Source of the DNA: a virus
Lineage: Duplodnaviria; Caudoviricetes
Direction: 5' to 3' (one strand)
Virus record (IMG/VR): IMGVR_UViG_2716884858_000003
Coordinates: 1 to 64,000 of that record
Length of the DNA stretch: 64,000 nucleotides
How positions within the stretch are numbered: position 1 is the stretch's first letter; every line of letters starts with the position of its first letter. This document shows, piece after piece, positions 10,991 to 36,794 of this stretch. A program made the position numbers and the translations under genes. The notes under the pieces are model-generated. The model saw only the letters and a program-made list of their open reading frames with translations. It had not been told where the DNA came from and did no database searches.

Positions 10991-11270
10991 CGCCTACCTC
11001 CGCATTGCTGACGCGCTGCTGCCGGTCGTGATGACCGTGCCGGTGTGGGGGCCGCTGCTGCTCGTCGGGACGGTCGCCGTCCTGATGTGGCAGCGGCGGC
11101 CCGCCGCCCGGGCGGTGTCCGGACATGTCTCGGACCCCGTCCGGACGTGCGCGGACACCGGCCCGGACACCCACACCCCCAGTGCTGTGACCTGCGCGGA
11201 CGCGTGTCCGGGCGTGTCCGCGGATACCTGGGCGGACGTGCCCGGACGCGAGGCAAGGGGCGAACAGTGA
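10983..11270 (+). CDS. Small membrane protein containing a GGACA motif cluster
   Basis: Hydrophobic N-terminus; coupled overlaps at both ends. Confidence 0.5.
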   Translation: MLDAYLRIADALLPVVMTVPVWGPLLLVGTVAVLMWQRRPAARAVSGHVSDPVRTCADTGPDTHTPSAVTCADACPGVSADTWADVPGREARGEQ

Positions 11271-11617
11271 CGTCGATCTTTCCCGCCCGTAAGGCGCCGG
11301 ACAACCTGCCGCGGCCCGTCCACTGGGCGAGCGCCGCGGTGTGCAAGCAGAGGGACGTGGACCCGGAGATCTTCTTTCCGGTCCCCACCGACCTGGTGGC
11401 CGTCGAGCACGCCAAGAGCTTCTGCCGTCGCTGCCCGGTGCAGATGCGATGCCGTACGGACGCCCTCAACCGGGGTGAGGAGCACGGCGTATGGGGCGGC
11501 CTGGACGAGGACGAGCTACGCGCCGTGCGCAAGGTCCGCCGGGCTGCCGCCGCCAAGCAGGCCGCCCAGGAGAAGCAGGCCGCCGACGACCTCGACGCGC
11601 TGGCCAAGGCCGGCTGA
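11267..11617 (+). CDS. WhiB-family transcriptional regulator
   Basis: W..AVC...DPEIFFP...AK.FC.RCPV...C...AL...GVWGG. Confidence 0.93.
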   Translation: MTSIFPARKAPDNLPRPVHWASAAVCKQRDVDPEIFFPVPTDLVAVEHAKSFCRRCPVQMRCRTDALNRGEEHGVWGGLDEDELRAVRKVRRAAAAKQAAQEKQAADDLDALAKAG

Positions 11618-11669
11618 CCACCTCCTGCCCTACACCACTGACCTGACCACCAACTGAGGGGAGCCACCC

Positions 11670-11969
11670 GTGGCCATCACCGAACGCGAGATCCGCATCA
11701 GGTTCGCCCCGCCCAGGACCGACGAGGTCCGCAATGACATAAAGGCCCAGATCTCCGCCAAGGCCGAAGAGTTGGCGCTGCTCATCCATGAGCTGGTGCC
11801 CGGCTGCCGTGAGCAGTCCGAGGCGATCAGCGGCGTGGAGCACGCCGTGCAGTGGGCGCACGACGGGGTGGACCGGCGCCTGGTCCTGCCCGGCGAGCAG
11901 CGCCCGGCCCTGGCCCCGTTGATGGCCGCCGAGAGCGGGCCCGCCCCCGACCGGCCGGGAGGTGCGTGA
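11670..11969 (+). CDS. Acb2/Tad1-like small helical protein (candidate nucleotide sponge)
   Basis: RF.P...KAEELALLIHELVP..REQS.AI..VE.AV.WA resembles the REKSLAITKLEEAVMWA pattern. Confidence 0.6.
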   Translation: MAITEREIRIRFAPPRTDEVRNDIKAQISAKAEELALLIHELVPGCREQSEAISGVEHAVQWAHDGVDRRLVLPGEQRPALAPLMAAESGPAPDRPGGA

Positions 11970-12169
11970 TGGCGCTGCAAATTACCGGCCTGGGCGTGGC
12001 GGACTACCAGGAGATCGTGGAGGCCCTGCTGGTCGCCTCCGACCACGCCGGGGGCCCGGAGGTCGCCGAGCGCCGCCGGGAGATCGCGGACCGGATCGGG
12101 GCCGCCCTGGAGACGCTGCCGCCGCCGCGTGAGGCCCTGGAGGCCCGGGAGGCGGTGAGGGGCCAGTGA
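11969..12169 (+). CDS. Hypothetical phage protein
   Basis: TGATG coupling, GGAGG RBS. Confidence 0.55.
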   Translation: MALQITGLGVADYQEIVEALLVASDHAGGPEVAERRREIADRIGAALETLPPPREALEAREAVRGQ

Positions 12170-12630
12170 TCGGACCGAAGGACCTGGATCCACTGGCGCA
12201 AGAGATCCTGCGCCACACCCTGGACGGCGACCTCGCGGTGGCCGCCTCGTTCCTGGACGTCGTCACCGAACACGGCGATGGCGCGGACCTGTTCGGCGTG
12301 TGCTGCGCCGCGGCCGAGACCGCGCGCGGCGCCCTGCTCACGCTGTTCCCCGACGCCGGCGCGGCCGAGGGCGACAGATGGCAGCTGCCCCCGGGCCTGG
12401 CCGACCAGCTCGCCGCCGACCCGCATCGGCTGTTCGCCGCCAGGTTCACCACCGCCTACCTCAACGACGACCGCGTGATGGCGCTCGCGCTGTTCCAGGC
12501 CACCGAGGCGGCCGGCTGCCGGGACCGCACGGAGTCCATCTGTGCCCTGCTCGCGCACGTGCGCTGCCTGACCCTGCGGGCCGAGCAGGGGCCTGCAACA
12601 CCCGACCACCCGGGAGGCGTTCCCGCATGA
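12166..12630 (+). CDS. Hypothetical phage protein
   Basis: GTGA overlap. Confidence 0.6.
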   Translation: MIGPKDLDPLAQEILRHTLDGDLAVAASFLDVVTEHGDGADLFGVCCAAAETARGALLTLFPDAGAAEGDRWQLPPGLADQLAADPHRLFAARFTTAYLNDDRVMALALFQATEAAGCRDRTESICALLAHVRCLTLRAEQGPATPDHPGGVPA

Positions 12631-12863
12631 CCACCGACACGATGCCCACGCGCGCCAAGTGGCAGCCCGTCAAGGGCGAGCACCGACAGCGGATGCGCGC
12701 CGAGGCGGCCAAGGACTACGTGGACGGGTCCAGCATCCGAGCCGTGGCCGCCCACCTGTCCGAGAGGTACGGGCCCGTCAGCTTCGGCCTGGCCCGGGAC
12801 CTGCTCCTGGAGGCCGAGGTGCCCATGCGGTCCAGGACCAGCGGCCTGCGCCGCCGTTCCTGA
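12627..12863 (+). CDS. Small HTH protein
   Basis: YVDGSSIRAVA...SFGLARDLLLEA.V.MR. Confidence 0.7.
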   Translation: MTTDTMPTRAKWQPVKGEHRQRMRAEAAKDYVDGSSIRAVAAHLSERYGPVSFGLARDLLLEAEVPMRSRTSGLRRRS

Positions 12864-12902
12864 CCGCCTGCCTCTCTGTCCCTGCTCCAGGAAGGCACCA
12901 GC

Positions 12903-13265
12903 GTGCCCCTCTTCACCAACCGTCAAATCATCATCGGCGTCGGCCTGGTCGCGTTGATCGTGCTGCTGCTCTCGTGCGGCGCCGCTGTCCGCGACGACGG
13001 CGACGCCGACGACTGCCGCGGCCTGGGTCTGGCCGCCGCTGCCAAGGGCACGCCCAAGCCTGCGAGACCGGCCGCACCGGCGGCGCCTCGGGTGCCGGTG
13101 CGCAAGGACCCGGCCCCGGCTCGCACGGCCCGCCCGGTGGCTACCCCGGCCCCGGCCAGCACCGTGCGCAAGGTGCCCGCCCCGGCCGCGACGCGCACCG
13201 TCACCGCCCACCCGCATGGCCACGACCACGGCGGCGTGGACGTCGACCTGGACGTGTGCGGCTGA
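12903..13265 (+). CDS. Putative secreted or membrane-anchored Pro/Ala-rich protein
   Basis: Hydrophobic N-terminus followed by LLSC. Confidence 0.5.
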   Translation: MPLFTNRQIIIGVGLVALIVLLLSCGAAVRDDGDADDCRGLGLAAAAKGTPKPARPAAPAAPRVPVRKDPAPARTARPVATPAPASTVRKVPAPAATRTVTAHPHGHDHGGVDVDLDVCG

Positions 13266-13367
13266 CCCTCAGACCACCCTCCCAGCGCGGCCCGGGCCTC
13301 TTCCCCCTCCCTCTGGGCCCGGGCCGCGCGCACCCTCTCTCCGTCCTCGACGCCGAAGGAGACCCCG

Positions 13368-13676
13368 ATGCCCCAGCGCTCCTACTGCCCGACCTGCGGG
13401 GCCGAGATCCGGTGGACCGTCACCGAGGCCCGTAAGCGCCTGGCGGTCGACGCCGAGCCGCATCCGGACGGCAACACCGCGGTGTCCCGTGACGGGCGCG
13501 GCACCTGGCTGTCGCGCCGGCCGACTGAGGAGCTGCCGCTGGCCGCCTACGAGAAGTTGCACAAGCCGCACGTGGCCACCTGCAAGGGCCGCCAGGACAA
13601 GGCGGAGCTGACGCGCTGCCTGGGCGTGATCCGGCTGGATGACCATCGCCGGGGCCGAGGCGTACCGGGCCGTTGA
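13368..13676 (+). CDS. Zinc-binding hypothetical phage protein
   Basis: CPTCG.EIRW...PH.ATC; AAGGAG RBS. Confidence 0.7.
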   Translation: MPQRSYCPTCGAEIRWTVTEARKRLAVDAEPHPDGNTAVSRDGRGTWLSRRPTEELPLAAYEKLHKPHVATCKGRQDKAELTRCLGVIRLDDHRRGRGVPGR

Positions 13677-13712
13677 CCTGCTGTTACGAGATGCGTACAC
13701 GGACACAGCATT

Positions 13713-13746
13713 GCAACTTGATATTGCAACGTCATCATGCAAGATT
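13713..13746 (+). promoter_or_regulatory. Degenerate copy of the 28-bp operator/promoter, upstream of the replication gene
   Basis: GCAACTTGATATTGCAAC; TTGATA-17 bp-AAGATT. Confidence 0.65.
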
Positions 13747-13824
13747 GCGGAGCGGAGGACGACGCAGCGCCCGATACGCCACGTCGCCGCCGCCCCCCAG
13801 TAACAGCGACCGAGAGAGACGACA

Positions 13825-14895: not shown

Positions 14896-14958
14896 CCCAC
14901 CCCGGGGCGCTCCCGCCCGATACCGGAGCGCCCCGGCCACCGAGGAAGTGAGCCACCG

Positions 14959-15456: not shown

Positions 15457-15707
15457 GCGACGAGACCGAGACCGCCCCCGCCTTCCAGCTCACCCCCGAA
15501 CGCGTGGGGAGGATCCGCGAGTTGCTCGCCGAGCTCGTCACCGCCTGCGCCCCGCACGGCAAGGAGACCGTCGGCGACGCCGAGCACCGCGAGACGCTCG
15601 CCCGCTGCCGGGACGCCATCACCGACCTGATCAACGAGCGGGACGCCCTGGTCAAGGCCAACGGGGAGGCCGGCGAAGAACTGGCCCGCTGGATGGGGGA
15701 CCTGTGA
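15453..15707 (+). CDS. Hypothetical phage protein
   Basis: GTGA overlap, GGAGG RBS. Confidence 0.55.
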   Translation: MSDETETAPAFQLTPERVGRIRELLAELVTACAPHGKETVGDAEHRETLARCRDAITDLINERDALVKANGEAGEELARWMGDL

Positions 15708-16615
15708 CCGAGACCCGCAAGAAGCCCGGCCCACACCCGCAGGAGGCCCAGATCCTGGCCCTGATCGCACAGGGCCTGAACAACGCCGCCATCGCGGAGC
15801 GCCTGTTCTGTGGGCCTCGCGCGGTCCGCAAGGTGCGCGAGAACAATGACCTGCCCCCAGCGTCGCGCAACTCCTGGCGCCTGCCGCACCCCAAGGAGAA
15901 GGAGATCCGGCGGCTCCTGGCGGAGGACCTGACCGACGCGGAGATCCACCGCCGCACCGGCGCCAGTCCCGAGACGATCGCCACCAGGCGCAAGGAACTG
16001 CGTATCGGCCGGGCCCCGATGCCCAAGCCCAAGGCGCGCCCCCACCCCCGGGAGGCGGAGATCCTGGTGGAACTGCGGGCAGGCGGCACCAACAACGGCA
16101 TCGCCCGCAAGCTGGGCGTGGACAAGGTGGCCGTGGGCCGGATCCGCGGGGACCACCGCATCCCCAACACCTACGAGCGCAAGCGCGCCGAGCAGCCCAC
16201 CCTTGAGCAGCGCTGGCAGGAACTGGCCCGCACAGTGACCGGCGGACACGCGGAGTGGACCGGCAAGCGCAGCACGCCGTCCAACACGCCGATCCTGCGC
16301 CACCTCGGATCCTGGTACAGCCCGGCCGCCATCGCGTTCCGCATGCGCACCGGCCGGGAGCCTCACGGCCAGGTCCGCGCGGAATGTGACTTCCCCCAGT
16401 GCGTGGCCCCGGCCTGCGTGGAGGACGAGCCCGGCCGCCAGGCCCTGCGCCGACACCTCCGCGCCCTCCAGGGCCTGGGTCCCGTCCCGGACACCTGCCC
16501 CGGCAGCCACGACCAGGCCGTCGACGGCCGCCTCGACGCCAGCCTTCACGCCTACTGCGAGGGCTGCAAGCGCGACAAGGCGCGCGCCAAGAAGCAGGCA
16601 CGCACGACCACCTGA
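15704..16615 (+). CDS. Triple-HTH protein with degenerate HNH-like C-terminus
   Basis: Three PHPxE..I..L...G..N..IA repeats; CDFPQCVAP. Confidence 0.7.
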   Translation: MTETRKKPGPHPQEAQILALIAQGLNNAAIAERLFCGPRAVRKVRENNDLPPASRNSWRLPHPKEKEIRRLLAEDLTDAEIHRRTGASPETIATRRKELRIGRAPMPKPKARPHPREAEILVELRAGGTNNGIARKLGVDKVAVGRIRGDHRIPNTYERKRAEQPTLEQRWQELARTVTGGHAEWTGKRSTPSNTPILRHLGSWYSPAAIAFRMRTGREPHGQVRAECDFPQCVAPACVEDEPGRQALRRHLRALQGLGPVPDTCPGSHDQAVDGRLDASLHAYCEGCKRDKARAKKQARTTT

Positions 16616-17488: not shown

Positions 17489-17910
17489 CCTGGGGCAGGC
17501 GGGTGCGCATCGCCCTGTACACCGTGGCGTTCGCCGTCCTGGGCTGGCACGGCGCCGCCGCCCTGTTCGCCGGCGTCTGGGTGCTCGCCGCCGCGCTCTA
17601 CGCCCTGGCGCTCGTCTTCGCCGTCGCCGCCTACGCGGAGTGGAGCACCGCCGCGGCATACGCCGACGCGGTCGACGCCCGCCTGCCCACCGACCCCACC
17701 AGCCGCGGCCACGCCCGCCTGCTCGCCCGCCGCGTCCTGCGCGACACGTGCGGCTGCAACCGCTGGTGGACCTCCTTCGGCACCGACCACGACCCCTGGT
17801 GTCCCGCCCAGACAGGAGCAGCCCATGCCCGAGCCCGCACCCGTCGACCCGTACCGCGACGCCGAGCTGTGGCAGCTGCTCGCCGTCACCACCGACACCG
17901 AGCGCGGTGA
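17485..17910 (+). CDS. Membrane hypothetical protein
   Basis: ATGA overlap, two hydrophobic segments, CGCNRWW..G.DHD..CP. Confidence 0.55.
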   Translation: MTWGRRVRIALYTVAFAVLGWHGAAALFAGVWVLAAALYALALVFAVAAYAEWSTAAAYADAVDARLPTDPTSRGHARLLARRVLRDTCGCNRWWTSFGTDHDPWCPAQTGAAHARARTRRPVPRRRAVAAARRHHRHRAR

Positions 17911-17977
17911 ATCCCCGCCAGGGCCGCGCCTGCCAGCCGGCACCGCTCGCCACCGTCACCCCGATCCGGAGCAACCG

Positions 17978-18406
17978 ATGACGACTCCGCCCGATCCCTG
18001 GCCCCTGCCGCAGCGCGGCCCGCTCATGCCGATGAACGGCACGGCCACCTGCCACACCAAGGATCACGAGAGCGCGCCCGTGTGCGGCAGGCCAGCCACC
18101 TGGCATATCGCCTGGACCCTCGAACCCGGCGTCGCCTCCTCCTTCGCCTGCGACGTGCACATGGACGCCATCCGCGCCGAGTACGTCTACACCGACCGCC
18201 ACCCGGTGGGCGCGGCCTGCCCGCTGCCCGGCATGACCTGGTGGGGCCTGCACGGACGGTGCGCCCTCGACCTCGACACCAGCCACGACCACACCCCCCC
18301 GGGAGATCACCCATGGCCGCCACTGACTGCGTCGGGTTCCTCGACGCCGACCTGCCGCCCGTACCGCCGCCCACCCCGCGAGCGCCTGCCGCCCTCACCG
18401 AGCTGA
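17978..18406 (+). CDS. Cys/His-rich hypothetical protein
   Basis: CGRPATWH...ACDVH motif; exact ends uncertain. Confidence 0.45.
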   Translation: MTTPPDPWPLPQRGPLMPMNGTATCHTKDHESAPVCGRPATWHIAWTLEPGVASSFACDVHMDAIRAEYVYTDRHPVGAACPLPGMTWWGLHGRCALDLDTSHDHTPPGDHPWPPLTASGSSTPTCRPYRRPPRERLPPSPS

Positions 18407-18876
18407 TCGCCGGCACTCTGTGGCCGCTCGCCGATTGGAAAGGCGACCGCGCCCAGTGCGAGCGCGCCGCCCAGGCCGTCGTCCGCCTCATCGTCTCCGT
18501 CAGCGCCACGACCGCCGCCCTGTATCGCGCGGCGGACGAGGAGACGCAGCGCCTGGTCGTCGACGCCGCCCGGGCGAACGCCACGATCGACCACCTGCGC
18601 AGCTGCATGGCCCGGTTGACCGGCCACAACCGCCAGGACCTGGACCCCCTGGCCGAGGCCAACTACGAGGCACGCGCCCGCGAGGCCGCCGTCGCCCAGG
18701 CCCGCCAGTGGGCCGAGCGGGCCCGCACCGCGGAGACCGCCGTCGACCGCGTCACCGCCTGGTGCAACGACCTCGACCACCGCGCCAAGGACCAGGCCGG
18801 CCCGGACGCCGTCCACCCCGTGGCCGCCCACGTCCGCCATCACCTGGCCGGCGCCACCGAGGAGGGACCGAAGTGA
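18313..18876 (+). CDS. Hypothetical phage protein
   Basis: GGAG RBS, coding-like composition. Confidence 0.55.
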   Translation: MAATDCVGFLDADLPPVPPPTPRAPAALTELIAGTLWPLADWKGDRAQCERAAQAVVRLIVSVSATTAALYRAADEETQRLVVDAARANATIDHLRSCMARLTGHNRQDLDPLAEANYEARAREAAVAQARQWAERARTAETAVDRVTAWCNDLDHRAKDQAGPDAVHPVAAHVRHHLAGATEEGPK

Positions 18877-19622
18877 CCGACCGCGAAACCCTCGACGGCC
18901 TGCTGGGGGAGTGGGTCACGGTCCGCAACCCGGACCTGCCCGTCTCCTGGTACGGGCGCCTCGTCGGACTCCACGACGACCCCGGCGTGCTGCTCGCCAT
19001 CCCCGGCCGCGGCGGTACCTGCCTGCCCCAGCGCTACACCATCGCGGCCGCCGAGGCGCCCGCCGCCGTCCCGGCCGCCCAGGGTCTGCCGGACGGCGCC
19101 CTGGACTCCGCGGCCGCCGGCGCCGACATGCTCGATGCCTGGGCCCAGACCCCGGCCGGCCGCAACCTCCTCGCCCACGCCCTGACCCAGCTCGCCAGGG
19201 ACGGCTGGCTGCGCCCCGAGCCCGGCGACGGCTGGGACCCCGTCCCCGTCCCCGACCCCGTCGCGCCCACGCCTGGGACCGCCCCGGCGGACACGCGTCC
19301 GGACATGTCCAAGACCGAGGCGGACAGCCGGGGCGGACACGTCCGGACACGCGATGCCGGCGAGGAGCCGCGCACCTGCCTCACGCCCCCGACCAGGACA
19401 GACGTTGTCCGGACACACCCGGACACGGACACGGCGGACACCCCGGACCTCGGTGTCCGGATCGAGTACCGGGCCCGCGTCCGCCGGGACCAGGTCCACT
19501 TGGCCCTCACCGAAGCCTTCAACGCCATCGCCCGGGAAACCGACCGGTGCGAGTGCGGCCAGCGCGGCGAGTTCATCAGCGCCGACAGCAGCGGTGCCCA
19601 CTGGCACGCCGCCCCCGACTAA
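18873..19622 (+). CDS. Hypothetical phage protein containing a GGACA motif cluster
   Basis: GTGA overlap, GGAGG RBS. Confidence 0.55.
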   Translation: MTDRETLDGLLGEWVTVRNPDLPVSWYGRLVGLHDDPGVLLAIPGRGGTCLPQRYTIAAAEAPAAVPAAQGLPDGALDSAAAGADMLDAWAQTPAGRNLLAHALTQLARDGWLRPEPGDGWDPVPVPDPVAPTPGTAPADTRPDMSKTEADSRGGHVRTRDAGEEPRTCLTPPTRTDVVRTHPDTDTADTPDLGVRIEYRARVRRDQVHLALTEAFNAIARETDRCECGQRGEFISADSSGAHWHAAPD

Positions 19623-19641
19623 CCCGCGAGCCGCGTATCGC

Positions 19642-19992
19642 CTAGTCCGGGAAACCGAGCGCCGTGTCCGGGCGGCAGTGAGTGCACGCCGGCACCTGGT
19701 GCCGCAACGCGTCCACCGCCTGCTCCCGGGTGACCGGACGGCACCGGCCGCTCTTCGCCGCCGCCCAGCAGTCGCCCATGTGTACAGATTCGACGTTGCG
19801 GCGGTTCAGGCCGAACTGCACCAGCCACTCGGGCCGCTGCTGCTCCCGCTCCTCGGCATGCCGCCGCTCGGCATCCCGGCGCCTTTCCTCGTCGATCCAC
19901 CTGTCCAGCTGCGCCAGACTCGTCAGCGCCTGCTGCTCGACCACGCGCCGCGCGAACAGCAGCAGGTCCAGGCGAGACGGCGTGTCGTTCAT
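19642..19992 (-). CDS. DUF6233-like protein
   Basis: W.VQ.G...VH.GDCW...TREQA.DAL...VPAC.HCRPDTALG. Confidence 0.8.
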   Translation of the reverse strand: MNDTPSRLDLLLFARRVVEQQALTSLAQLDRWIDEERRRDAERRHAEEREQQRPEWLVQFGLNRRNVESVHMGDCWAAAKSGRCRPVTREQAVDALRHQVPACTHCRPDTALGFPD

Positions 19993-20042
19993 GTGTTCGA
20001 TTCTAGGTGTGAGTGGGCGATTCCAGCCAACCCCAAACCGGA

Positions 20043-21735
20043 TGTCCGGCGGCATCGAACCTTGACCGATTGCCACTGAAGATTGACCACTGTGGTTCGT
20101 GCCATCGAAGTTTGACCGGCACCAGAGTGCCTGGTCGGCGGGCAGGAACCAGGCTCGGGCCGCCGGTCAGCCCGGGCTGCTCAACCTGCGCAGCCCAGCA
20201 GCAGCGGAAGAGTACGGCCCCTGGCGAGCGAACTCCGGTGTCAACCCGTCAATGTTCAATGCCATCGGGCGATCGTGCCCTGATCGCAACGAGCGCCCGG
20301 ATTCAGCCCCCCGATCAGGTCGCTATGGTGAGCTACCTCCCCTTCAAAGCGACAAGGATAAGCGGATGTTCTGCACCGGGTGTGGCCAACCCGCTGGCGT
20401 CGCTGACGCCTACTGCGCCAGATGCGGACGGCGCCTGGCGGCCGCCGATACTCTAGGATCGGTCGGCCAATTCGTGTCGCCACCCCCGGCCGGACCGCCC
20501 ATTGACCGCAGGCTACGGCTCATCGCAGGCGGAGCGGCGCTCGCCGCAGCCGTGTCAACCGTCATCGCCCTGTTTCCCTCCTACTCCTACACCGGAGCCG
20601 ACGCCGTGCGTCGGACCCTCCATGACTCGCCCGGCACCTTGGCCTACAACCTGGTCTTCATCACCGCACTGGTAACAGCAGCCTTGCTGACTGCGGTCGG
20701 AAAGACAGCCCGCTTCGGCCTCGGCATGGTCACCGGCAGCGGCTTTCTCTTCATGGCCATCCTTAGCGGGGACGTCGGTGACATCCTGCGCGGAGGGGCC
20801 GACTACACCAGCGCCTACAACGCACCCGGGGCCGGCTTCTACTGGGGTCTCGCCGGCGGAATCCTCGGTGCAGCCGCGGCCACCGTCGCCGCAGCCGCTC
20901 TGCGACGCTCCCAGGACCTGTTTCTGGTGCCGTCCCGAACCAGCGCACTCTGGGCGGTGGCTGGAATGGTCCTGGCGGGGTCTTGGATCCTCGGGACGTG
21001 GTGGCCTTGGACCCAGAACATCGTCACTCTGAACGACGCCAAGGGCAGCCTCAAGACCGTCGAATTCGATCGGTGCTGCTCGCTGTCGAACATGGCCTGG
21101 CAGTGGGTCGCACAGGCGGTTGCCGTCGCGGTCCTGCTCGCCGTGATCGGCGTGGTCGCTGCATGCCTTCGGTCGGCTGCCGTCGAGGCGGGTCTTCTCC
21201 TTGCCGGTGCCGTCTTCTCGGCAGCCCAGGTTGTCGACTTGCTCTTGCATAAGCCGTACACCCTTGAGCAGGTGGCCGCTGCCTACCACGTGTCGAAGTC
21301 GTCCCTAGTTGCGGCAGGGGCAGTAGTACGGCTTGAGGTGTTGCCCGGCGCCTGGATCGCCACAGCAGCCTCGGCAGGATTCGTGCTGATGGCAGTAGGG
21401 CGGGGCATCCAGGCTGGAACTGCAGCCCAGCCGTCCGCCCCGGGCCGACCGGCCGTCGCCACGGTGCCGACGCAGTCCCCCGCCCTGGACGCGCCTGCAC
21501 AGCAGGTGTCCAGCGACATTGAACATTGACGGGTTGACACCGGAGTTCGCTCGCCAGGGGCCGTACTCTTCCGCTGCTGCTGGGCTGCGCAGGTTGAGCA
21601 GCCCGGGCTGACCGGCGGCCCGAGCCTGGTTCCTGCCCGCCGACCAGGCACTCTGGTGCCGGTCAAACTTCGATGGCACGAACCACAGTGGTCAATCTTC
21701 AGTGGCATTCGGTCAAGGTTCGATGTCACCGGACA
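20043..21735. mobile_element. Non-autonomous IS21-type cassette with long inverted ends and 5-bp target-site duplication
   Basis: 20043-20261 is the near-perfect reverse complement of 21517-21735; TG...CA termini; repeated GAANNTTGACC motifs; CCGGA at 20038-20042 and 21736-21740. Confidence 0.88.
20366..21529 (+). CDS. Zinc-ribbon polytopic membrane protein (cassette cargo)
   Basis: MFCTGCG...YCARCG followed by about 8 hydrophobic segments. Confidence 0.75.
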   Translation: MFCTGCGQPAGVADAYCARCGRRLAAADTLGSVGQFVSPPPAGPPIDRRLRLIAGGAALAAAVSTVIALFPSYSYTGADAVRRTLHDSPGTLAYNLVFITALVTAALLTAVGKTARFGLGMVTGSGFLFMAILSGDVGDILRGGADYTSAYNAPGAGFYWGLAGGILGAAAATVAAAALRRSQDLFLVPSRTSALWAVAGMVLAGSWILGTWWPWTQNIVTLNDAKGSLKTVEFDRCCSLSNMAWQWVAQAVAVAVLLAVIGVVAACLRSAAVEAGLLLAGAVFSAAQVVDLLLHKPYTLEQVAAAYHVSKSSLVAAGAVVRLEVLPGAWIATAASAGFVLMAVGRGIQAGTAAQPSAPGRPAVATVPTQSPALDAPAQQVSSDIEH

Positions 21736-22759: not shown

Positions 22760-23300
22760 GCTCGAACGGCAATGGTCACGGCGCCATGCGACACGCGGTG
22801 GGCGGCGCTCGGGAACTCCGCCACGTCCGCTGGCCCGCACGCCAGGCCCAGGATCTCGCCGGCCACGCGCACCCGCCAGCTGCCGCTCGGCGACACCACC
22901 ACGCGACGCTGCCCGGACATGCCCCCAGCATCAGCCCGCCGTCCGGACATGCACCCGGAGCGGTTCCAGCCCTGCCGCTGCTGCGCGCGACGTTGCGACC
23001 GGGGTCCGCTGCACCACCACGCAAGACATGCGCACTACGCCATTCGGGCCCACCCTGGAAGCGGCACCATCGGCTGCACAGGCCGACCATCCCCCGGGAG
23101 GTCCTGTGGTCCTGCTCGCACTGCTCATGCCCGGCCTGATGATCGCGTTCCTCTTCACCACGGACGCCGTCGAGGATTACCTCTTCCCACGCCTGCCAGC
23201 GGCAGGTGACGTGACACCTCCAGCCGACGACATACAACCGCGCTCCCCCTGACAACAGCGCCCCGTCCGGACATGCGCCCGGACAACGTCCAGACGCACG

Positions 23301-25630: not shown

Positions 25631-26800
25631 ATGACCGAGACACCCGAGACGCCGCAGCACTGGCAGCCGGGTACGCGCCGCAAGAAGGTCAAGATCCAGC
25701 GGGCGGAGACCACCGTCATCGACGGCAGGCCGTCCACGCGGATGGTGCCTGACGAGGTGTGGGTCACCCTCCCGCCGCGCGACTGGGACGAGATCATTCG
25801 GCGCGGTGTCACCACCGTGGCGGTCGTCGTCACCGTCCTGGCCGCAGCCGGGACCACGGCGAGCGTCGGCGGCCTGCTGTCGCACATGCTGCACCCGGGC
25901 GTCGCGTACGCCGTGGGCGTGGTGTTCACGTCCTCCTGGCTGGCCTGCCTCGGCGTGGAGCACATCGAGCGCGTTGACGCCGGCCGCGCCAAGCGGGCCC
26001 GGATCGGCGGGTGGGCGGCCCTGATCATCAGCATGGGCGCCGTCATCACGTACGGCCACACCCTGGACCTGCTGCCCGCCGGAGTCGTCGGCTCCTGCCT
26101 GGACCTGCTGGCCAAGGGCCTGTGGTTCCTGGTCATGGGACTGGACACGGTCAATCTGGACCCCGGCGTCGCCCACTGGGTCGCCGAGGAGGAGCAGCAC
26201 CTGGCCGGCCGGTTCCTGCTCGGAACCCGGCTGGCCCGCCTCAACCGGCGCGCCGTCCAGATGCGGGCAGGGGGCCCGGAGTTCCAGGCGGCGGAGGCCA
26301 TCCTGGCCCAGGCCAGCGGCCACCAGGCGCAGCAGCTCCCGGCCGCGGACACGTCCGGACAGGCGGCGCCCGTGTCCGCTCCGGTGTCCGGACAGCCGCA
26401 GGCACCGGCCCAGGCGCCGGTGTCCGGACACGTCCCGGCCCCGTCCGGCCCGCCCCCGGCGGCGCCGACCCCGCCCCCGGCCGCCCCCGTACCGCCGCCT
26501 GCCGCGCCGACGCCGCCCGCACCGCCGGTCACCCCGGCGGGCACCGGCGCGTCCGGCAGCAGCGAGCAGCAGGACGGCGGCCCCGGCCTGCGCCCCGTGG
26601 GCCCGCCCAGCAAGGCCCAGACCATCCGCGACGTCCTGGTCGCAGACCCCAAGATCAGCGACGCCGACCTGATCGAGCACGTCAAGGCCGTCCACGGCGA
26701 CGGCGACGACGCGGCCAAATTCGCGGACACCGTGACCCGTACGCGGCGGCGCATCGAGAACCCGTCCGCGCCCCGCACGAAGAAGACCCGGAGCGCCTGA
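25631..26800 (+). CDS. Four-TM protein with Pro-rich linker and C-terminal putative DNA-binding domain (Spd-like architecture)
   Basis: Four hydrophobic segments, PA-rich linker, SKAQTIRDVL..DP.ISDADL...TVTRTRRR tail. Confidence 0.7.
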   Translation: MTETPETPQHWQPGTRRKKVKIQRAETTVIDGRPSTRMVPDEVWVTLPPRDWDEIIRRGVTTVAVVVTVLAAAGTTASVGGLLSHMLHPGVAYAVGVVFTSSWLACLGVEHIERVDAGRAKRARIGGWAALIISMGAVITYGHTLDLLPAGVVGSCLDLLAKGLWFLVMGLDTVNLDPGVAHWVAEEEQHLAGRFLLGTRLARLNRRAVQMRAGGPEFQAAEAILAQASGHQAQQLPAADTSGQAAPVSAPVSGQPQAPAQAPVSGHVPAPSGPPPAAPTPPPAAPVPPPAAPTPPAPPVTPAGTGASGSSEQQDGGPGLRPVGPPSKAQTIRDVLVADPKISDADLIEHVKAVHGDGDDAAKFADTVTRTRRRIENPSAPRTKKTRSA

Positions 26801-26940
26801 TGACCACGCCCCAGTGGCTCGCCCTCGATGCTTTCGCCGGCCTGGTGATGTTCTTCCGCTGCCGCAACGACCTGTGGCGCCTGGGCGGCCTGCTCATGAC
26901 CGGCGTTGCTCTGCTGTACCTGCTCTCAGGGGTGGAGTAG
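26800..26940 (+). CDS. Small membrane protein
   Basis: TGATG coupling, hydrophobic. Confidence 0.5.
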   Translation: MTTPQWLALDAFAGLVMFFRCRNDLWRLGGLLMTGVALLYLLSGVE

Positions 26941-27659
26941 TGCGCTACGCCGTCCTGCTGCTGGTCGCCGCAGGCGGCGCCTACTGCTGGCTGCGCTACC
27001 GCGGCCCGGGGCGCACCTCGAGCGCCCGCCGCCCCCGCCCGGGCGGCCGGCCGATCGAGGGCGCGGGCGCCTCCGCGGATGCCCACGCCCGGGAGCTGCG
27101 CACCCCGCTGGTGCGCCTGGCCACCGCGGCAGGGATCACCACCCGCGCGGAGGCCCGCGCCCGGAACTTCGCGACCGGAGCCGAGGGGGAGCGGTACGTA
27201 GCCCAGCTCCTGGAGCCCTTGACCCGGGAGGGGTGGGTGTTCCTCGCCGACTGCGCCCTGCCGCACGGTGAGGCACAGGTGGACCTGCTGGGCTTCGGCC
27301 CGCGCGGCCTGGTCGTGAACGTGGACCCGAAGAAGTGGGACCGCCGTTTCCGCCTGAGCGTGCGTGGCAACCGCCTGCTGCACGGCACCAAGGACGTGTC
27401 CGGGCGCATGCGCGGCCTGGCCTACGAGACGCGCACCGTCGCCGCCCTGCTGTCCGTGCCGGTCGTGCCGGTCGCCGCCATGGTCGGCCCGATGCTGCGC
27501 GGCACGATCCTGCGCTTCCGCGGCATCCGCCTCGTCCCGGCCGAGGACGTCCCCGAGTTGCTGCGCGCCCTGGACCGCACGCACCTGACCACCATCCCCT
27601 CCGGCCGTCTCGTCGACACTGCCCAGCGGCTGCTGCCGCCCAAGATCACCAAGAGGTAA
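26940..27659 (+). CDS. Membrane-anchored NERD-domain nuclease-like protein
   Basis: GAEGE..VA..L...GW.FL.D...QVD.L..GP.G...VD.K. Confidence 0.78.
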   Translation: MRYAVLLLVAAGGAYCWLRYRGPGRTSSARRPRPGGRPIEGAGASADAHARELRTPLVRLATAAGITTRAEARARNFATGAEGERYVAQLLEPLTREGWVFLADCALPHGEAQVDLLGFGPRGLVVNVDPKKWDRRFRLSVRGNRLLHGTKDVSGRMRGLAYETRTVAALLSVPVVPVAAMVGPMLRGTILRFRGIRLVPAEDVPELLRALDRTHLTTIPSGRLVDTAQRLLPPKITKR

Positions 27660-30876: not shown

Positions 30877-30897
30877 CTGCCGCCTACGGCGCGGGCG

Positions 30898-32700: not shown

Positions 32701-32734
32701 GCAACTTGACATTGCAATGTAGAGTTGCGAGAGT
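32701..32734 (+). promoter_or_regulatory. 28-bp symmetric operator/promoter copy
   Basis: GCAACT-TGAC-ATTGCAAT-GTAG-AGTTGC; TTGACA-17 bp-GAGAGT. Confidence 0.82.
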
Positions 32735-32785
32735 GTGAGTGTCAGGACGGGCGAGGGGCCCGGACGGAACCGGAGGGACAGCGCA

Positions 32786-33547
32786 ATGAACACCACCGCC
32801 AAGGCCGCGCAGCAGATCGCCCGCCTCGTTGAGGCCGAGGACGCCCTCACCACCGCCCGCCGCGAGGAGGCCCGCACCGCCAAGACGGCGGAGCGCGCCA
32901 CCGCCCGCGCCAAGGCCGCCCGCGCCAAGGTCGCCCCCGCCCGCACCGAACTGCGCAAGGCGGAGCGCGCCGGTAAGGGCGTGGCCGCCGCCACCCGCCG
33001 CCTGGCTGCCCGCATGGCCAAGGCCGCCGACCTGGCCCAGACCGCCCGGGAGGCCCGCTACGCCGCCCGCCTGGCCGCCCGCGCCGCCACCACCGCCGCC
33101 CGCCGACTGGACCGCCTGGCCCTGCGCGCCGCCACCACCGCCACCCGCATGGTGGGCGAGGTCGCCCAGCGCATGGGCGAGCGCGTGGCCACCCCCGCCG
33201 CCGAGCAGGACAAGACCCTGCCGGTGGAGGAGCTGCCCGCGGTCGCCGACATCGAGCAGCGCGCGGAGCGCTTCAAGACCCTGGACACCGAGGCCAAGGC
33301 CAAGGCCAAGCTGGCCGACGCCGAGAAGAAGTGGCTCCGCCGCCTGCCCGTGGGCACCTACGGCCGCGTGACCGTCACCCGCACCAACGGCGGCACCGTC
33401 ATCGACGCCGACCAGGTCGCCGTGGACTACCTGGACAACGGCCTGGGAGTGCCCCCGCGCAAGGGCCGCAAGGACACCTTCAAGGTCGCCCTGGAGGCCC
33501 CGGCGGTCGAGACCGCCGACCACGTGGCCCTGGTGATCGCAGCCTGA
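32786..33547 (+). CDS. Ala/Arg-rich coiled-coil hypothetical protein
   Basis: GGAGG RBS; helical N-terminus. Confidence 0.72.
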   Translation: MNTTAKAAQQIARLVEAEDALTTARREEARTAKTAERATARAKAARAKVAPARTELRKAERAGKGVAAATRRLAARMAKAADLAQTAREARYAARLAARAATTAARRLDRLALRAATTATRMVGEVAQRMGERVATPAAEQDKTLPVEELPAVADIEQRAERFKTLDTEAKAKAKLADAEKKWLRRLPVGTYGRVTVTRTNGGTVIDADQVAVDYLDNGLGVPPRKGRKDTFKVALEAPAVETADHVALVIAA

Positions 33548-33614
33548 CCCACAACCCCCACCCCGCCGGGCACCGTACGGTGCCCGGCCCCACCGAAGGA
33601 ACGGAGCACACCCC

Positions 33615-34040: not shown

Positions 34041-34105
34041 CCCCCGCCCCCACCGCCCGGGCGCACCCGATAGGCGCCCGGCCCCCCACGGAAGGAGCCA
34101 CCGCC

Positions 34106-34288
34106 ATGGCCGCACCTGCCCTGTACGGAGTCGCCGCCCGCTCCGTCGCCACCGGCGACCTGATCACCTGCGACTCCGCGTTCGACCTGGAGGACCTGCC
34201 TGCCCTGCTGGAGGGCTACCGCATCCGCTACGCGGACCGCGACGACGTGCTGATCGACCTGGACACCACCCCCCTGGCCGCCAACTGA
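34106..34288 (+). CDS. Small acidic hypothetical protein
   Basis: AAGGAG RBS; flanked by CCCGAT hairpins. Confidence 0.65.
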   Translation: MAAPALYGVAARSVATGDLITCDSAFDLEDLPALLEGYRIRYADRDDVLIDLDTTPLAAN

Positions 34289-34409
34289 CCCCACCCACCC
34301 GGGCCGGGGCGGGCGCACCCGATGGGCGCCCGCCCCGGCCCCTGCTGCTGGAGGCCCCTGGGTGACCCGCAGGGGTGAACCTCTCGCCATGCGGCACGCA
34401 CTCCACATT

Positions 34410-34443
34410 GCAACTTGACATTGCAATGTCGAGTTGCAATCAT
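34410..34443 (+). promoter_or_regulatory. 28-bp symmetric operator/promoter copy
   Basis: GCAACT-TGAC-ATTGCAAT-GTCG-AGTTGC; TTGACA-17 bp-AATCAT. Confidence 0.82.
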
Positions 34444-34496
34444 GGCGAACACCGGGAAGGGCGCAGGGCCCGACCGGAACCCCCCAGGAGCACCAG

Positions 34497-35012
34497 ATGG
34501 CCGCCACCACCGCCGCCCGCACCGCCACCCCGTACGCGTACCGCCAGTGCGCCGCCCGCGCCCGCGACCTAGCGGACATCCTCCGCACCCGCCTGGACGG
34601 CCACCCCCACCGCAGCGAGCTGCTGGTGTTCATCGGCCACCTGCACACCGCCGCCGAGGGGTTCGAGACCGCCGAGCCCCTGGTCATGGACGGCGTGACG
34701 ATCCCCAACGTCGCCCCCGCCGAGGGCCACCTGCCCCTGCTCATGGCCGCCGGCCACGCCGCCGACCACCCGGAGGTCGGCATCTCGGAGGCCGTGTTCG
34801 CCTACGTCACCGCCCCCGTCACCCGCCGCACCTACCGCCTGGAGCCGCTGACCGGCGGCGGCCTCGAGGACGCCGAGCTGCGCACCCGCATCGCCCTGGC
34901 GGAGCACGACCTGGCCACCGAGGGCGACCCCACCACCCGCTACGCCCTCCTGGCCACCCTCGTGCAGCTCCACGGCGACCACCTCGCCCGCGGCGGCCAG
35001 GTCGCCGCCTGA
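34497..35012 (+). CDS. Hypothetical early protein
   Basis: AGGAG RBS. Confidence 0.7.
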   Translation: MAATTAARTATPYAYRQCAARARDLADILRTRLDGHPHRSELLVFIGHLHTAAEGFETAEPLVMDGVTIPNVAPAEGHLPLLMAAGHAADHPEVGISEAVFAYVTAPVTRRTYRLEPLTGGGLEDAELRTRIALAEHDLATEGDPTTRYALLATLVQLHGDHLARGGQVAA

Positions 35013-35097
35013 CCCGCCCCCGTCAGGCCGGGCGCACCCGATATGCGCCCGGCCCCCGGCCCCACTCCCCAGCGCCACCAGGAACGGAGCACCACCC

Positions 35098-35835
35098 ATG
35101 CGCTATTACGCCACCGCCCAGAACATCGGCGGCCGGGCCGTCCAGTGCGACGCCGCCGCCGTGCACACCGCCCCTGGGGGCGCACGCGCCTACGTCTTGC
35201 TTGACGGCATCGGTGACAAGCCGCACGTGCGCGACTGGACCCGCACCGCCGCCCGCCGCCTCGCCCGCAGCGCCGCCCAGCTCCTCGACGCCGCCGCCGG
35301 CCTGCGCGGGGAATACATCCGCTACGCCGCCGAGCCGGACCGCCACGGCCCCCGGGGAGCGGGCCCCATGGCGTGCGCCGTCGTGGCCGTCGAGGCCCCT
35401 GGCCGGCCGCTCACCGTCGCCTGGTGCGGCGACGTGCGCGCCTACTGGCTCGTGCGCGGCACCCTGCGCTGCCTCACCCAGGACCACAACCTGCGCCGCG
35501 TGTTCCCGCCCTGCGAGACGTACCCGGCGGGCGGCAGTCGCCACGCGGTCACCAGCTGCCTCGGCTCCGTCAATGGCGACGAGGAGCTGATGCGCGAGGT
35601 CCGGCACCCGGCCATCGAGACGGCCGCCATCGGCGCCGAGCGCGGGCGCCTGCTGCTCGCCTGCGACGGCGCATACGAGCCCCACGAGGACGCCGGACAC
35701 CAGCTCTCCGACCTGCTGTACGGCCCGCCCGCCGAGGCCGCCCGCCGCGTCGTCAACGACGCCGTGGCCACCGCCCTGACCGTCACCCACCGGCCGGACA
35801 ACGCCACCGCCCTGGTGGCCGACCTGTACGTGTAA
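35098..35835 (+). CDS. PP2C/PPM-family Ser/Thr phosphatase
   Basis: R..QCDA, LLDGIG, AWCGDVRAY, LTQDH, LLLACDG, DNAT motifs. Confidence 0.85.
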   Translation: MRYYATAQNIGGRAVQCDAAAVHTAPGGARAYVLLDGIGDKPHVRDWTRTAARRLARSAAQLLDAAAGLRGEYIRYAAEPDRHGPRGAGPMACAVVAVEAPGRPLTVAWCGDVRAYWLVRGTLRCLTQDHNLRRVFPPCETYPAGGSRHAVTSCLGSVNGDEELMREVRHPAIETAAIGAERGRLLLACDGAYEPHEDAGHQLSDLLYGPPAEAARRVVNDAVATALTVTHRPDNATALVADLYV

Positions 35836-35926
35836 CCGCAGGCCGGACGATGTCCGGACGCGTCCGCCCCCTGTTCTGGGACGCGTCCGGACATCGGCCC
35901 GGGGTGGCGCGCCCGACACCCATATT

Positions 35927-35960
35927 GCAACTTGACATTGCAATATGGAGTTGCCAATAT
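35927..35960 (+). promoter_or_regulatory. 28-bp symmetric operator/promoter copy
   Basis: GCAACT-TGAC-ATTGCAAT-ATGG-AGTTGC; TTGACA-17 bp-CAATAT. Confidence 0.82.
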
Positions 35961-36009
35961 GGATCACGTGAGGGAGGGCAAACGGCCCGACCGGAACGGA
36001 GCGAACGCC

Positions 36010-36186
36010 ATGAATACCTACACCGTCGGCCAGCGCGTACGGATCACCGTCGACCTGGACCCCGAGAAGTACCCGATCGGCACCGAGACCACCGTCACCG
36101 GCCACTGTGACCTGAGCGGCTTCCCGTGCATCACCCTCGGCGGCCAGACCGTGACCATGATCCCCGGCCACCTCCTCCCCGCCTGA
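36010..36186 (+). CDS. Small SH3-like-barrel hypothetical protein
   Basis: YTVGQRVRI...GTE.TVTG; GGAG RBS. Confidence 0.6.
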   Translation: MNTYTVGQRVRITVDLDPEKYPIGTETTVTGHCDLSGFPCITLGGQTVTMIPGHLLPA

Positions 36187-36283
36187 CCCAACGCCAGGCG
36201 CCGGGGGCCGCACCCGATATGCGGCCCCCGGCGTTCACCCACCGAGACCGGCCACCAGCCACAGGCCCCCGAAAGGAACCCCG

Positions 36284-36535
36284 ATGCGCCTGCGCTACTC
36301 GATCCCACTGCCCGGCCCGTTCTCCGTCGGCGGAGGCGTCAACCTCGGCGGCGGGGGTAAGGCGCTCGGCTACCTGTTCGTGCTCCCGATCATGCTCCTG
36401 CCCTACCTGCTGCTGGGCGAGGCGTGGCTGATGTGGTGGTGCCTCAAGCCCTGGTACATCGCCGGCGTGCTCGTACACCGCAAGGTCACCGGCCGGCCCA
36501 CGCCCATCTGGCGCTCCCGCAACGGCTGGTGGTAA
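36284..36535 (+). CDS. Small membrane protein
   Basis: AAAGGA RBS, hydrophobic. Confidence 0.6.
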   Translation: MRLRYSIPLPGPFSVGGGVNLGGGGKALGYLFVLPIMLLPYLLLGEAWLMWWCLKPWYIAGVLVHRKVTGRPTPIWRSRNGWW

Positions 36536-36794
36536 CCCGCCCCCGGACACCGGCCGGACAACCCCGGCCGGACACGCCGGACACGACCTGACCAGCACCG
36601 ACGACCCACCAACGGACACGGGGCGGACACGCCCGCCCCACGTCCCGGACACCCGCCCCGGACACGTCTGGGACACCGCCCGCCCAGGCCGCCCCCTCCG
36701 GCCCGGGCGGGCCCTCGTCGTCCCCAGGAGCCACCTCGCCGCCCGGCGTACCCTGCTCCGCTGCCCAAGCAGCCCCCGAGCAGGGACAACGCCC

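Follow-up and report, generated by a model that had tools for sequence, protein, structure and literature searches.

Arrays of a CCGGAC motif and an SpdB-like membrane protein in a Streptomyces prophage: a candidate tether for phage DNA

Related plasmid and phage systems

Spd proteins are genetically required for plasmid spread, and the mechanism by which they act is poorly understood. How phage and plasmid DNA are positioned and moved in the multinucleate, septated hyphae of Streptomyces is an open question in the field, and phage homologues of Spd proteins have so far been mentioned only in passing. Here, we describe dispersed arrays of a short DNA motif with the core CCGGAC in a Streptomyces prophage, together with an SpdB-like membrane protein, encoded at 25631-26800, whose C-terminal domain is a candidate reader of that motif. 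The window is the whole stretch of DNA that was analysed, the first 64 kb (bases 1-64000) of a 114,478-bp IMG/VR provirus record (IMGVR_UViG_2716884858_000003; rated complete, Streptomyces), and coordinates above 64000 refer to the rest of that record. An earlier note, made from the sequence alone, had proposed that such clusters and a phage-encoded protein form a pair that anchors or spreads phage DNA along hyphae.

The passages of PMC4447253 considered here describe SpdB2 of plasmid pSVH1 as a membrane protein with four helices that oligomerises, forms pores and binds double-stranded DNA non-specifically, report that the C-terminus of TraB recognises clt, and note SpdB2 homologues on actinophages, for which a role in the spread of phage DNA is suggested (PMC4447253). 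Like SpdB and SpdB2, the 25631-26800 product is a predicted four-helix integral membrane protein of similar size with a homologous membrane domain. Unlike them, it is encoded on a 114-kb prophage that lacks an FtsK-like gene as well as the partners TraB, Spd79 and SpdB3, and its C-terminus bears a distinct three-helix domain, connected through a long disordered tether. In addition, the binding proposed for it is sequence-specific and directed at dispersed arrays, whereas the published binding of SpdB2 is non-specific.

According to the portion of PMC4170104 considered here, SpdA2 of plasmid pIJ101 binds a 12-bp palindrome (sps) that is repeated within its own gene, where it also encodes a peptide motif, and its removal lowers plasmid stability (PMC4170104). 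As far as that text goes, SpdA2 resembles the present system in combining a DNA-binding protein with a short palindrome repeated inside a coding region and in affecting segregational stability. SpdA2 is, however, a small soluble protein with two sps copies in one place, whereas here there are seven arrays over 110 kb. The sps site (CGTCACGTGACG), located in the pIJ101 record in two copies at one place, is itself unrelated to the CCGGAC motif.

TraB is an FtsK-like hexameric DNA pump whose 8-bp recognition repeat is GACCCGGA. No such ATPase is encoded here, and in place of the single clt locus of a TraB plasmid the present phage has dispersed arrays. The membrane-anchored DNA-binding protein p16.7 of phage phi29 organises phage DNA at the membrane by means of a protein with one transmembrane helix that binds DNA without sequence specificity, and to our knowledge no cognate site arrays are known for it; by Pfam or PHROG links it has no sequence relation to the SpdB-like protein. 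Short sites of one phage protein that are spread genome-wide, also within genes, are found as the stoperators of cluster A mycobacteriophages and the inverted repeats of phiC31. These are single 13-17-bp sites bound by an immunity repressor, the stoperators being 13-14 bp long, asymmetric and of fixed orientation, whereas the present arrays are clusters of 5-9 copies with a 6-8-bp core in mixed orientation.

Searches of the literature with the motif strings and for SpdB2 and phages, with supplements and Smith et al. 2013 outside their scope, returned no published description of such phage arrays. Matches to the motif strings were primers and p53 sites, and among the matches listed the one bacterial case was the MscA box TTGTCCGGACAA in mycobacteria, as given in the excerpt seen of its source (PMC11711680). 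While Spd-type DNA handling is known in Streptomyces, it would be new for it to involve a phage that has dispersed arrays and a sequence-specific reader domain. The present analysis shows that the arrays are real, constrained at the DNA level, conserved in position and co-occurring with the C-terminal domain, and that the membrane domain is homologous to SpdB.

Clustered CCGGAC sites and constraint on the DNA

No hexamer of the record is more over-represented than CGGACA (165 occurrences against 84 in an order-3 model), which is found in the window 89 times on both strands, against 59.3 +/- 6.9 expected and a null maximum of 75. When a cluster is defined as at least four CGGACA sites, with sites grouped when they lie within 60 bp, the whole record contains seven clusters with 49 sites (11116-11220, 19288-19349, 19406-19459, 26346-26430, 36544-36664, 77674-77838 and 109846-109951). 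An order-5 Markov null, the simulations of which keep the hexamer count (166 +/- 13), yields 0.07 clusters on average and at most one in 200 runs. CGGACA is also the most clustered hexamer of the record, and CCGGAC is the most clustered in the related record G003.

Within the arrays, CGGAC, CCGGAC and GTCCGGAC stand out as the strongest words, with A as the next base more often than G. CCGGAC is the conserved core; it often takes the form of the palindrome GTCCGGAC, and A usually comes next. Most sites are half-sites, not the full palindrome. The earlier note had taken the 10-mer palindrome TGTCCGGACA as the motif; it is indeed enriched, with four copies in the window (11116, 19406, 26385 and 26421) against 0.12 expected and a maximum of one in 100 shuffles, and with six copies in the whole record, but the conserved core is the shorter CCGGAC / GTCCGGAC. 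Strand patterns are mixed within clusters of 5-9 sites (for example '-+++--' and '-+----+--'), the spacings of same-strand sites peak at 9-13 and 21 bp, which is about one or two helical turns, and the arrays of the present record are not periodic tandem repeats.

Five of the seven cluster places listed in that note are real, while two (22911-22950 and 23265-23295) have two hexamers each and cannot be told from chance. Its statement that no clusters occur right of 37 kb holds inside the window but not for the whole record, where clusters follow at 77674-77838 and 109846-109951. It had correctly described clusters both inside open reading frames (ORFs) and between genes, one of them (26346-26430, seven sites) inside 25631-26800, and low-complexity DT, VSG and RT peptides arising from them; the array-coded peptides are DT, VSG, SGH/SGQ and RT. 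Intergenic DNA holds 17 of the 49 clustered sites, and the other 32, which are coding, fall in all six frame and strand classes.

A codon-matched null, which the same note had named as a possible refutation, was constructed by resampling synonymous codons with the protein fixed, either from genome-wide usage or by shuffling within the gene, and the clusters exceed it throughout (0-5 of 1000 trials reach the observed count). ORF 18873-19622 has 11 sites against 2.4 under the synonymous null, and 25631-26800 has 8 against 1.3-2.1, both counts being reached in 0 of 1000 runs. Gene 74592-77942, beyond the window, has 11 sites against 3.6-4.4 (reached in at most 1 of 1000), and ORF 10983-11270 has 6 against 1.7-2.5 (reached in 3-5 of 1000). 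Of the 2999 glycine codons in the gene calls only 186 are GGA, the rarest of them, and still GGA recurs in the array-encoded SGH and SGQ tracts. Since the sites occur on both strands, in all frames and in intergenic DNA too, and exceed protein-preserving nulls, the constraint is on the array DNA itself and not on the peptides.

The arrays of the window (Table 1) occupy a variety of settings. Array 1 lies inside the tail of a weak 95-codon ORF (10983-11270) and stops 20 bp short of the WhiB-like gene, and an array is also found upstream of the whiB homologue in the related records G001 and G003 and in loci L091 and L115. Array 3 codes for residues ~238-272, a part of the disordered linker of the SpdB-like protein, whose homologues have arrays at the matching linker place. 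The position of array 4 is matched in G001, G003, L117 and the plasmid pSITFR-21c (26464-26502). Array 5 fills the gap between 36284-36535 and the ParB-like gene, and the same position is arrayed in G001, G003 and G004, with 14 sites in G004.

Conservation of the arrays among relatives

An IMG/VR search with the ParB-like protein returned 17 loci, and five records (G001-G005) were read whole. The same motif occurs in arrays in G001, G003 and G004. G002 and G005, which are complete and of equal G+C, have neither arrays of the motif nor the 25631-26800 gene. Among the relatives read whole, gene and arrays are both present in G000, G001, G003, TurkishDelight and pSITFR-21c. A tblastn map of the positive genomes, with protein identities of ~40-85%, revealed arrays at corresponding gene positions: upstream of whiB and of the ParB-like gene, within the homologues of 18873-19622 and 25631-26800, at the ends of the PP2C-like and head protease/MuF genes, and in the space separating two tail genes. 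How many sites an array has, in what order and on which strand differs among relatives.

In the cultured Streptomyces phage TurkishDelight the CCGGAC motif is nearly absent, and its four arrays are made up of a related motif, CCGGGGAC with A or G as the next base, two of these arrays lying in the homologues of 18873-19622 (gp87) and 25631-26800 (gp97). A Streptomyces isolate is the source of pSITFR-21c, which was deposited as a circular plasmid of 103.5 kb. It has 42 of the 115 genes called here in common with the record, including the SpdB-like and NERD (nuclease-related domain) pair and head and tail genes. Of its CCGGAC arrays, two match in position, one following the PP2C-like gene and the other located where the head protease gene ends. 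No homologue of the integrase 40-1809 is present in it, and one of its proteins gives a sub-threshold integrase match.

The array-free relatives have local repeats of their own: G002 has hexamer clusters GGCTCA/TGAGCC (also GAGCCT) in one region (17648-21333), and G005 has GGGACC clusters in one region (11263-13360), most of these clusters being in-frame dipeptide repeats. At one record end, G001 (loci L033-L036) contains a CRISPR-like array with a ~29-bp repeat at bases ~100-4040, which is probably host flank within the record.

An SpdB-like protein with a C-terminal three-helix domain

The protein encoded by 25631-26800 was modelled with AlphaFold2 from 49 sequences, with a mean predicted local distance difference test score (pLDDT) of 79.8. 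The model consists of a beta-hairpin (17-46), four long helices (52-171), two further helices (178-233), a disordered linker (234-327), and a three-helix bundle (328-376) followed by a basic tail. The four long helices have pLDDT block means of 85-94, and their reading as membrane helices comes from the model. The description of this gene in the earlier note as encoding a four-membrane-helix protein with a C-terminal domain agrees with the predicted four helices and the confidently modelled three-helix bundle.

The protein matches PHROG 35187 and 29416, both of unknown function, and has no match in local Pfam, while PF27080 is the Pfam accession listed for its homologues. These number 87, mostly from named Streptomyces, and all are annotated as hypothetical. 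A profile of 12 homologues of the membrane domain aligned with SpdB of pIJ101 over 130 columns (hhalign probability 90.4%, E 1.4e-6) and with a 360-aa protein encoded beside an AAA ATPase on the small Streptomyces plasmid pADI95-16c (99.6%, E 1e-23); both matches cover the membrane domain only. By profile comparison, then, the membrane domain of 25631-26800 is homologous to plasmid SpdB.

The C-terminal domain folds into three helices again when it is modelled alone, and in the alignment an arginine is conserved in helix 1 and TVxR in helix 3. Its weak matches in the VIA-align fold search include a RecX repeat (root-mean-square deviation 1.7 over 47 residues), MecI, homeodomains and FoxP. Many of the weak fold matches are small DNA-binding helical domains, but unrelated bundles score as high. 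A fold search with the full model returned no assignable family.

Association of the motif with the C-terminal domain

In an alignment-based scan, 80 IMG/VR loci with the membrane domain were found and 79 were analysed (L256, with a cut ORF, was left out). The three-helix C-domain is present in 64 of them; the other 15 have a different C-terminus, nine of these being of the 'YVRTV..YL' type. CCGGAC arrays outside the gene but within 10 kb accompany 31 of the 64 loci with the C-domain against 1 of the 15 without it (Fisher p 0.003, uncorrected for kinship), and clustered CCGGAC sites occur in none of the nine 'YVRTV..YL' loci. Inside the gene, the density of CCGGAC is 8.6 sites per kb with the C-domain against 1.05 without. 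In the array-rich loci L200 and L245 the 25631-26800 homologue is the sole gene in common with the present phage.

A control palindrome, like the motif, saturates the scan of the collection, so that raw counts of palindrome-pair matches are uninformative; a comparison of linked genes was used instead. Among the matches listed, the C-domain is encoded in 11 of 118 IMG/VR loci picked by a pair of GTCCGGAC and in 0 of 119 picked by the control palindrome. L077, from the GTCCGGAC sample, has two C-domain copies with 31 sites between and around them.

Furthermore, changes in helix 3 are accompanied by changes in the motif. TurkishDelight and L183 have 'KDVRRL' instead of 'DTVTRT' in helix 3, and the arrays there consist of CCGGGGAC / GGGGAC; in L247 and L249 the helix 3 sequence DSIAKAITR pairs with CAGGAC. 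Additional 'variants' that seemed to track helix-3 changes (CCGGAG, CCGGAT and CCGGAA) were discounted as covariation, CCGGAG because it is confined to the linker in L232, L233 and L241. In L235 and L243, the CCGGAG array extends just beyond the gene end. The co-variation of motif and C-domain that the earlier note proposed as a check is supported in part, by the 31 of 64 against 1 of 15 loci and by CCGGGGAC accompanying a different helix 3, but CCGGAG drops out of it, and the density outside the gene shows no significant difference.

Proposed mechanism

We tentatively favour an explanation, quite possible on the co-occurrence, homology and predicted architecture on which it rests, in which a membrane-anchored SpdB-like protein and the CCGGAC sites form a pair that tethers or spreads phage DNA. 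The clusters would be arrays of short protein-binding sites for CCGGAC / GTCCGGAC, held at fixed positions on a ~114-kb temperate Streptomyces phage by selection on the DNA itself. The three-helix domain at the C-terminus of the SpdB-like protein is their likeliest ligand and would bind the motif, with one array placed inside the linker of its own gene; we infer that this domain faces the cytoplasm, and the biological role proposed here is of the same standing. The flexible linker would connect the candidate DNA-binding domain to the membrane domain, and from such a linker together with binding at several arrays it would follow that the phage chromosome is pinned at many points to membrane or septal complexes. 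Pinning of this kind could hold or segregate replicating or episomal phage DNA, or could pass phage DNA between hyphal compartments, as has been proposed for plasmid Spd proteins.

A bolder form of this explanation, which is possible but doubtful, is that this phage family has turned a plasmid spread protein into a sequence-specific, centromere-like, multi-site tether that works without ParA or an FtsK-type pump. With arrays every few to tens of kb, membrane or septal sites would hold the entire genome at many points. If the tethering explanation is right, it provides a defined protein domain together with a defined 6-8-bp site and naturally occurring arrays, which would make the question of how such DNA is positioned directly testable. 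It would also mean that a phage genome can hide many functional sites in coding sequence, readable at the DNA level only, and a tethering tool for Streptomyces could be made from the motif and its protein.

Several observations weigh against the tethering explanation. The binding published for SpdB2, in the passages considered, is non-specific and not motif-directed (PMC4447253). A search of the 114-kb record with PF01580 (FtsK_SpoIIIE), which does match control genomes, found nothing; the protein/site pair of the earlier note is supported by SpdB homology and gene-array co-occurrence but lacks a TraB/FtsK partner. The fold of the C-domain could be assigned to no family by Foldseek (best E-value 2.5), and its best VIA-align Z (6.1) is one that unrelated small helical bundles also reach. 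The density of CCGGAC outside the gene does not differ significantly in loci with and without the C-domain (medians 1.81 and 1.61 per kb, p 0.21), and 33 of the 64 C-domain loci have no outside array within 10 kb. Locus counts overstate independence because the lineages are related and the linker array is physically tied to the C-domain; the independent outside-gene contrasts number about four (CCGGAC, CCGGGGAC, CAGGAC and none). The CCGGAG arrays of L232, L233 and L241, confined to the linker, are readable as Pro-Glu codons.

Arrays also occur apart from the gene. Eight of ten high-GC array records without a homologue in the locus have no membrane-domain match record-wide (the membrane domain is elsewhere in the record in the other two), and seven of these eight, including the complete G007 and G013, have no C-domain match either. 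Five lower-GC array records gave no match. Among the matches listed for prokaryote genome loci with a pair of GTCCGGACA, 119 of 120 have no homologue within 8 kb and one has. Ten flanking genes sampled at seven Streptomyces loci are all ordinary chromosomal genes (MurT, TetR, acyl-CoA dehydrogenase, symporter, helix-turn-helix (HTH) protein, histidine kinase, alcohol dehydrogenase, GroEL and two major facilitator superfamily transporters), and the arrays at Streptomyces chromosomal loci are regular tandem repeats with a period of ~12-28. These chromosomal repeats may be due to chance, because the control palindrome saturates the scan too, but they may also reflect a host factor.

Intergenic tandem repeats of this kind, centred on GTCCGGAC, were located in the Streptomyces chromosomal loci L332 (2560-2669), L362 (3747-3809), L360 (3551-3672), L333 (7333-7424), L324 (5104-5214) and L307 (6333-6489). 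They lie beside housekeeping genes in the five loci with flanks scanned, the flanks of L307 being outside the scan.

Alternative explanations

An unlikely but not negligible alternative is that the arrays are real but bound by another factor in transcription control, either a host WhiA-like or sigma-region-4-like reader acting with the phage WhiB, or another phage protein such as the product of the 60-codon gene 34106-34288, the basic protein 32786-33547 or the GerE-HTH/HNH protein 15704-16615. In the parts of the sources considered, the motif footprinted for WhiA is GACAC, with GACGC and GACAG accepted as well (PMC3781837), and the DNA-binding domain of WhiA resembles sigma region 4 bound to TTGACA (PMC10243135). 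Accordingly, it speaks for a WhiA-like reader that 36 of the 57 GGACA sites in the arrays of the record read GGACAC, that array 1 ends just before whiB and has counterparts upstream of whiB in four relatives (G001, G003, L091 and L115), and that the arrays at 36544-36664, 109846-109951 and 77674-77838 precede genes. The invariant part of the motif is, however, CCGGAC and not GACAC, GACAC amounting to 14 of 33 GGACA sites in G003 and 9 of 28 in G004; GACAC was rejected as the main site since it is not the conserved core in either, and is kept only within this alternative.

As to phage proteins, presence or absence over seven genomes brought out two candidates: 34106-34288 is in 4 of 4 CCGGAC-type relatives and 0 of 3 others, and 32786-33547 is in 5 of 5 array-bearing relatives and absent from G002 and G005. 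Both were set aside, having no Pfam or PHROG match and being absent near array-rich homologue loci, namely from the 10-kb flanks of L181, L184, L185, L188, L200 and L245. Arrays in phages without the SpdB-like gene would also fit another factor, as would the tandem repeats that Streptomyces chromosomes have next to housekeeping genes with GTCCGGAC as their core, although these repeats are possibly chance (the control palindrome saturates the scan), and related phages G002 and G005 are array-free.

It is improbable that the clusters are functionless, as a by-product of replication slippage, gene conversion among short repeats, or codon or dipeptide bias (Pro-Asp, Ser-Gly, Arg-Thr) in rapidly evolving disordered linkers and spacers. 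Such an origin would suit the confinement of the arrays to disordered linkers, protein tails and intergenic gaps, the differences in site number, order and strand among relatives, the low-complexity repeats that other relatives have of their own (GAGCCT in G002, GGGACC in G005), the reading of CCGGAC and CCGGAG in short-form linkers as Pro-Asp and Pro-Glu, and the plain tandem repeats of the chromosomal examples. It is harder to reconcile with the same 6-8-mer at seven places, on both strands, in all frames and between genes, with counts above the synonymous-codon nulls, or with CGGACA being the most clustered hexamer here and CCGGAC in G003. Moreover, the arrays recur at matching positions in genomes that are ~50% diverged, are absent from relatives of equal G+C, and within the record are not periodic tandem repeats.

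The arrays would very improbably be centromere-like parS sites through which three ParB-like proteins (36795-37649, 42477-43283 and 43280-43999) partition an episomal prophage. The largest one-strand array (36544-36664) does lie 130 bp upstream of a ParB-like gene, arrays are found 0.5-3 kb upstream of ParB-like homologues in G001, G003 and G004, and one relative, pSITFR-21c, was deposited as a circular plasmid. Yet ParB-like homologues of similar identity are encoded in the array-free G002, G005, L017, L018 and L022, TurkishDelight has a ParB-like homologue and lacks CCGGAC arrays, local Pfam detects no ParB HTH in the three proteins, and the paralogues adjoin GTP cyclohydrolase I and radical-SAM genes. 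No ParA-type ATPase was found in the record with PF13614 (AAA_31), the sole ParA model searched, which matches 14 of 14 control genomes. The ParB-like proteins were rejected as the main binder because array-free relatives retain their genes and no ParA is present.

That the clusters are targets of a DNA modification or restriction activity that protects or marks regions is just as remote. In its favour are the palindromic core TCCGGA/GTCCGGAC, of which TCCGGA is a type II recognition sequence found 42 times on both strands in the G003 arrays, the modification-like module at 43996-47287 and the methyltransferases adjoining the ParB-like genes of TurkishDelight. Against it are the prevalence of half-sites over the palindrome, the want of an evident reason to cluster at matching positions, and the fact that no enzyme could be tied to the motif.

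Gene order and other features of the record

The record has a G+C of ~71%, its closest protein homologues come from named Streptomyces, and the only cultured relatives found are the Streptomyces phages TurkishDelight and SF3. Genes were called with a third-position G+C model and annotated by Pfam and PHROGs. Following the integrase, a Cro-like HTH gene and an excisionase-like gene, there is a block of homologues of TurkishDelight genes annotated as exonuclease, RecT-like, DnaQ-like and RusA-like. The WhiB-like gene is followed by a long series of genes with unknown function and then by 25631-26800, which sits in the phage early region. Downstream of it are, in order, the NERD gene, the PP2C-like gene and three ParB-like genes (the paralogues at 42477-43283 and 43280-43999 included), then an inserted ABC-3C-type island, deazaguanine-type genes, the terminase, IS110 copies and two giant genes, with the head and tail genes outside the window, further along the record. 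The NERD gene adjoins the SpdB-like homologue in 12 of the 79 loci, and also in pSITFR-21c.

Table 1. Arrays and genes bearing on the proposed protein/site pair, in record coordinates
Feature	Position	Strand	Remarks
Tyrosine integrase	40-1809		followed by Cro-like HTH and excisionase-like gene
Array 1	11116-11247	both	6 CGGACA (11116-11220); 12 CGGAC sites (11117-11247)
WhiB-like transcription factor gene	11267-11617	+	Pfam PF02467, E 2.3e-20; directly downstream of array 1
Arrays 2a and 2b	19288-19349 and 19406-19483		11 CGGACA sites in total (5 + 6), inside ORF 18873-19622, three frames
CGGACA pairs 22914/22944 and 23268/23280	22914-23285	+	two sites each, not distinguishable from chance
SpdB/SpdB2-like membrane protein	25631-26800	+	389 aa
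Array 3	26346-26447		7 CGGACA sites (26346-26430), including two TGTCCGGACA
C-terminal three-helix domain, candidate motif reader	26612-26758	+	pLDDT block means 91-97
NERD gene	26940-27659	+	Pfam PF08378, E 2.3e-7; conserved neighbour of SpdB-like gene
Array 4	35844-35892		6 CGGAC sites, 2 full hexamers only; just after stop of PP2C-like gene 35098-35835
Array 5	36544-36664	+	8 CGGACA, all on + strand, spaced 9-35 bp
ParB-like N-domain protein	36795-37649	+	PHROG 723, E 7.8e-43; downstream of array 5, rival candidate binder
Array beyond the window	77674-77838		8 sites
Array beyond the window	109846-109951		9 sites, including two more TGTCCGGACA

Rfam models at gathering score gave no matches over the whole window, and terminator and promoter scans of 35000-37000 returned zero sites for both. 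The predicted RNA fold of 36536-36700 has a z of -3.1, which is not decisive.

Separate from the CCGGAC arrays, a second over-represented motif, ACATTGCAAT(GT), is present in six copies (at most two mismatches) against 0.27 expected. The copies are at 13721, 31471, 32709, 34405, 34418 and 35935, each on the + strand with a gene start 24-100 bp downstream, and they are probably a set of phage promoters or operators. An operator-like motif separate from the arrays, ACATTGCAATGT, is present in the phage.

Two modules border on the ParB-like genes. On the minus strand, 38091-41687 holds three genes, including a DUF3732 protein and a protein with the CTD7 of ABC-3C (ABC three-component) systems, which have homologues in 0 of 6 relatives, and the segment looks like a defence-type island inserted among the ParB-like paralogues. 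At 43996-47287, the three ParB-like genes are adjoined by genes for a radical-SAM protein and GTP cyclohydrolase I, and this looks like a 7-deazaguanine DNA-modification module; the position of the paralogues beside it suggests a role that we presume to be DpdB-like, in 7-deazaguanine DNA modification.

The terminase large subunit (47916-50567; 883 aa) includes a LAGLIDADG_3 domain, and the alignment of relatives spans only about half of the protein, an observation compatible with an intein. Three consecutive IS110-family transposase genes lie on the minus strand within 50915-55640, followed by a tRNA-Met gene (55563-55640). Beyond these are two giant divergent ORFs, one of 1978 codons at 55995-61931 on the minus strand, with a Laminin_G_3 domain at its end, and one of 2222 codons on the plus strand from 62582 to record base 69250; both have an unusually low first-position G+C, and 0 of 6 relatives have a homologue. 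Finally, the window contains two long tandem duplications, one at 7277-7589 (165-bp unit, 1.9 copies, 85% identity) and one at 41846-42210 (180-bp unit, 2.0 copies, 98% identity).

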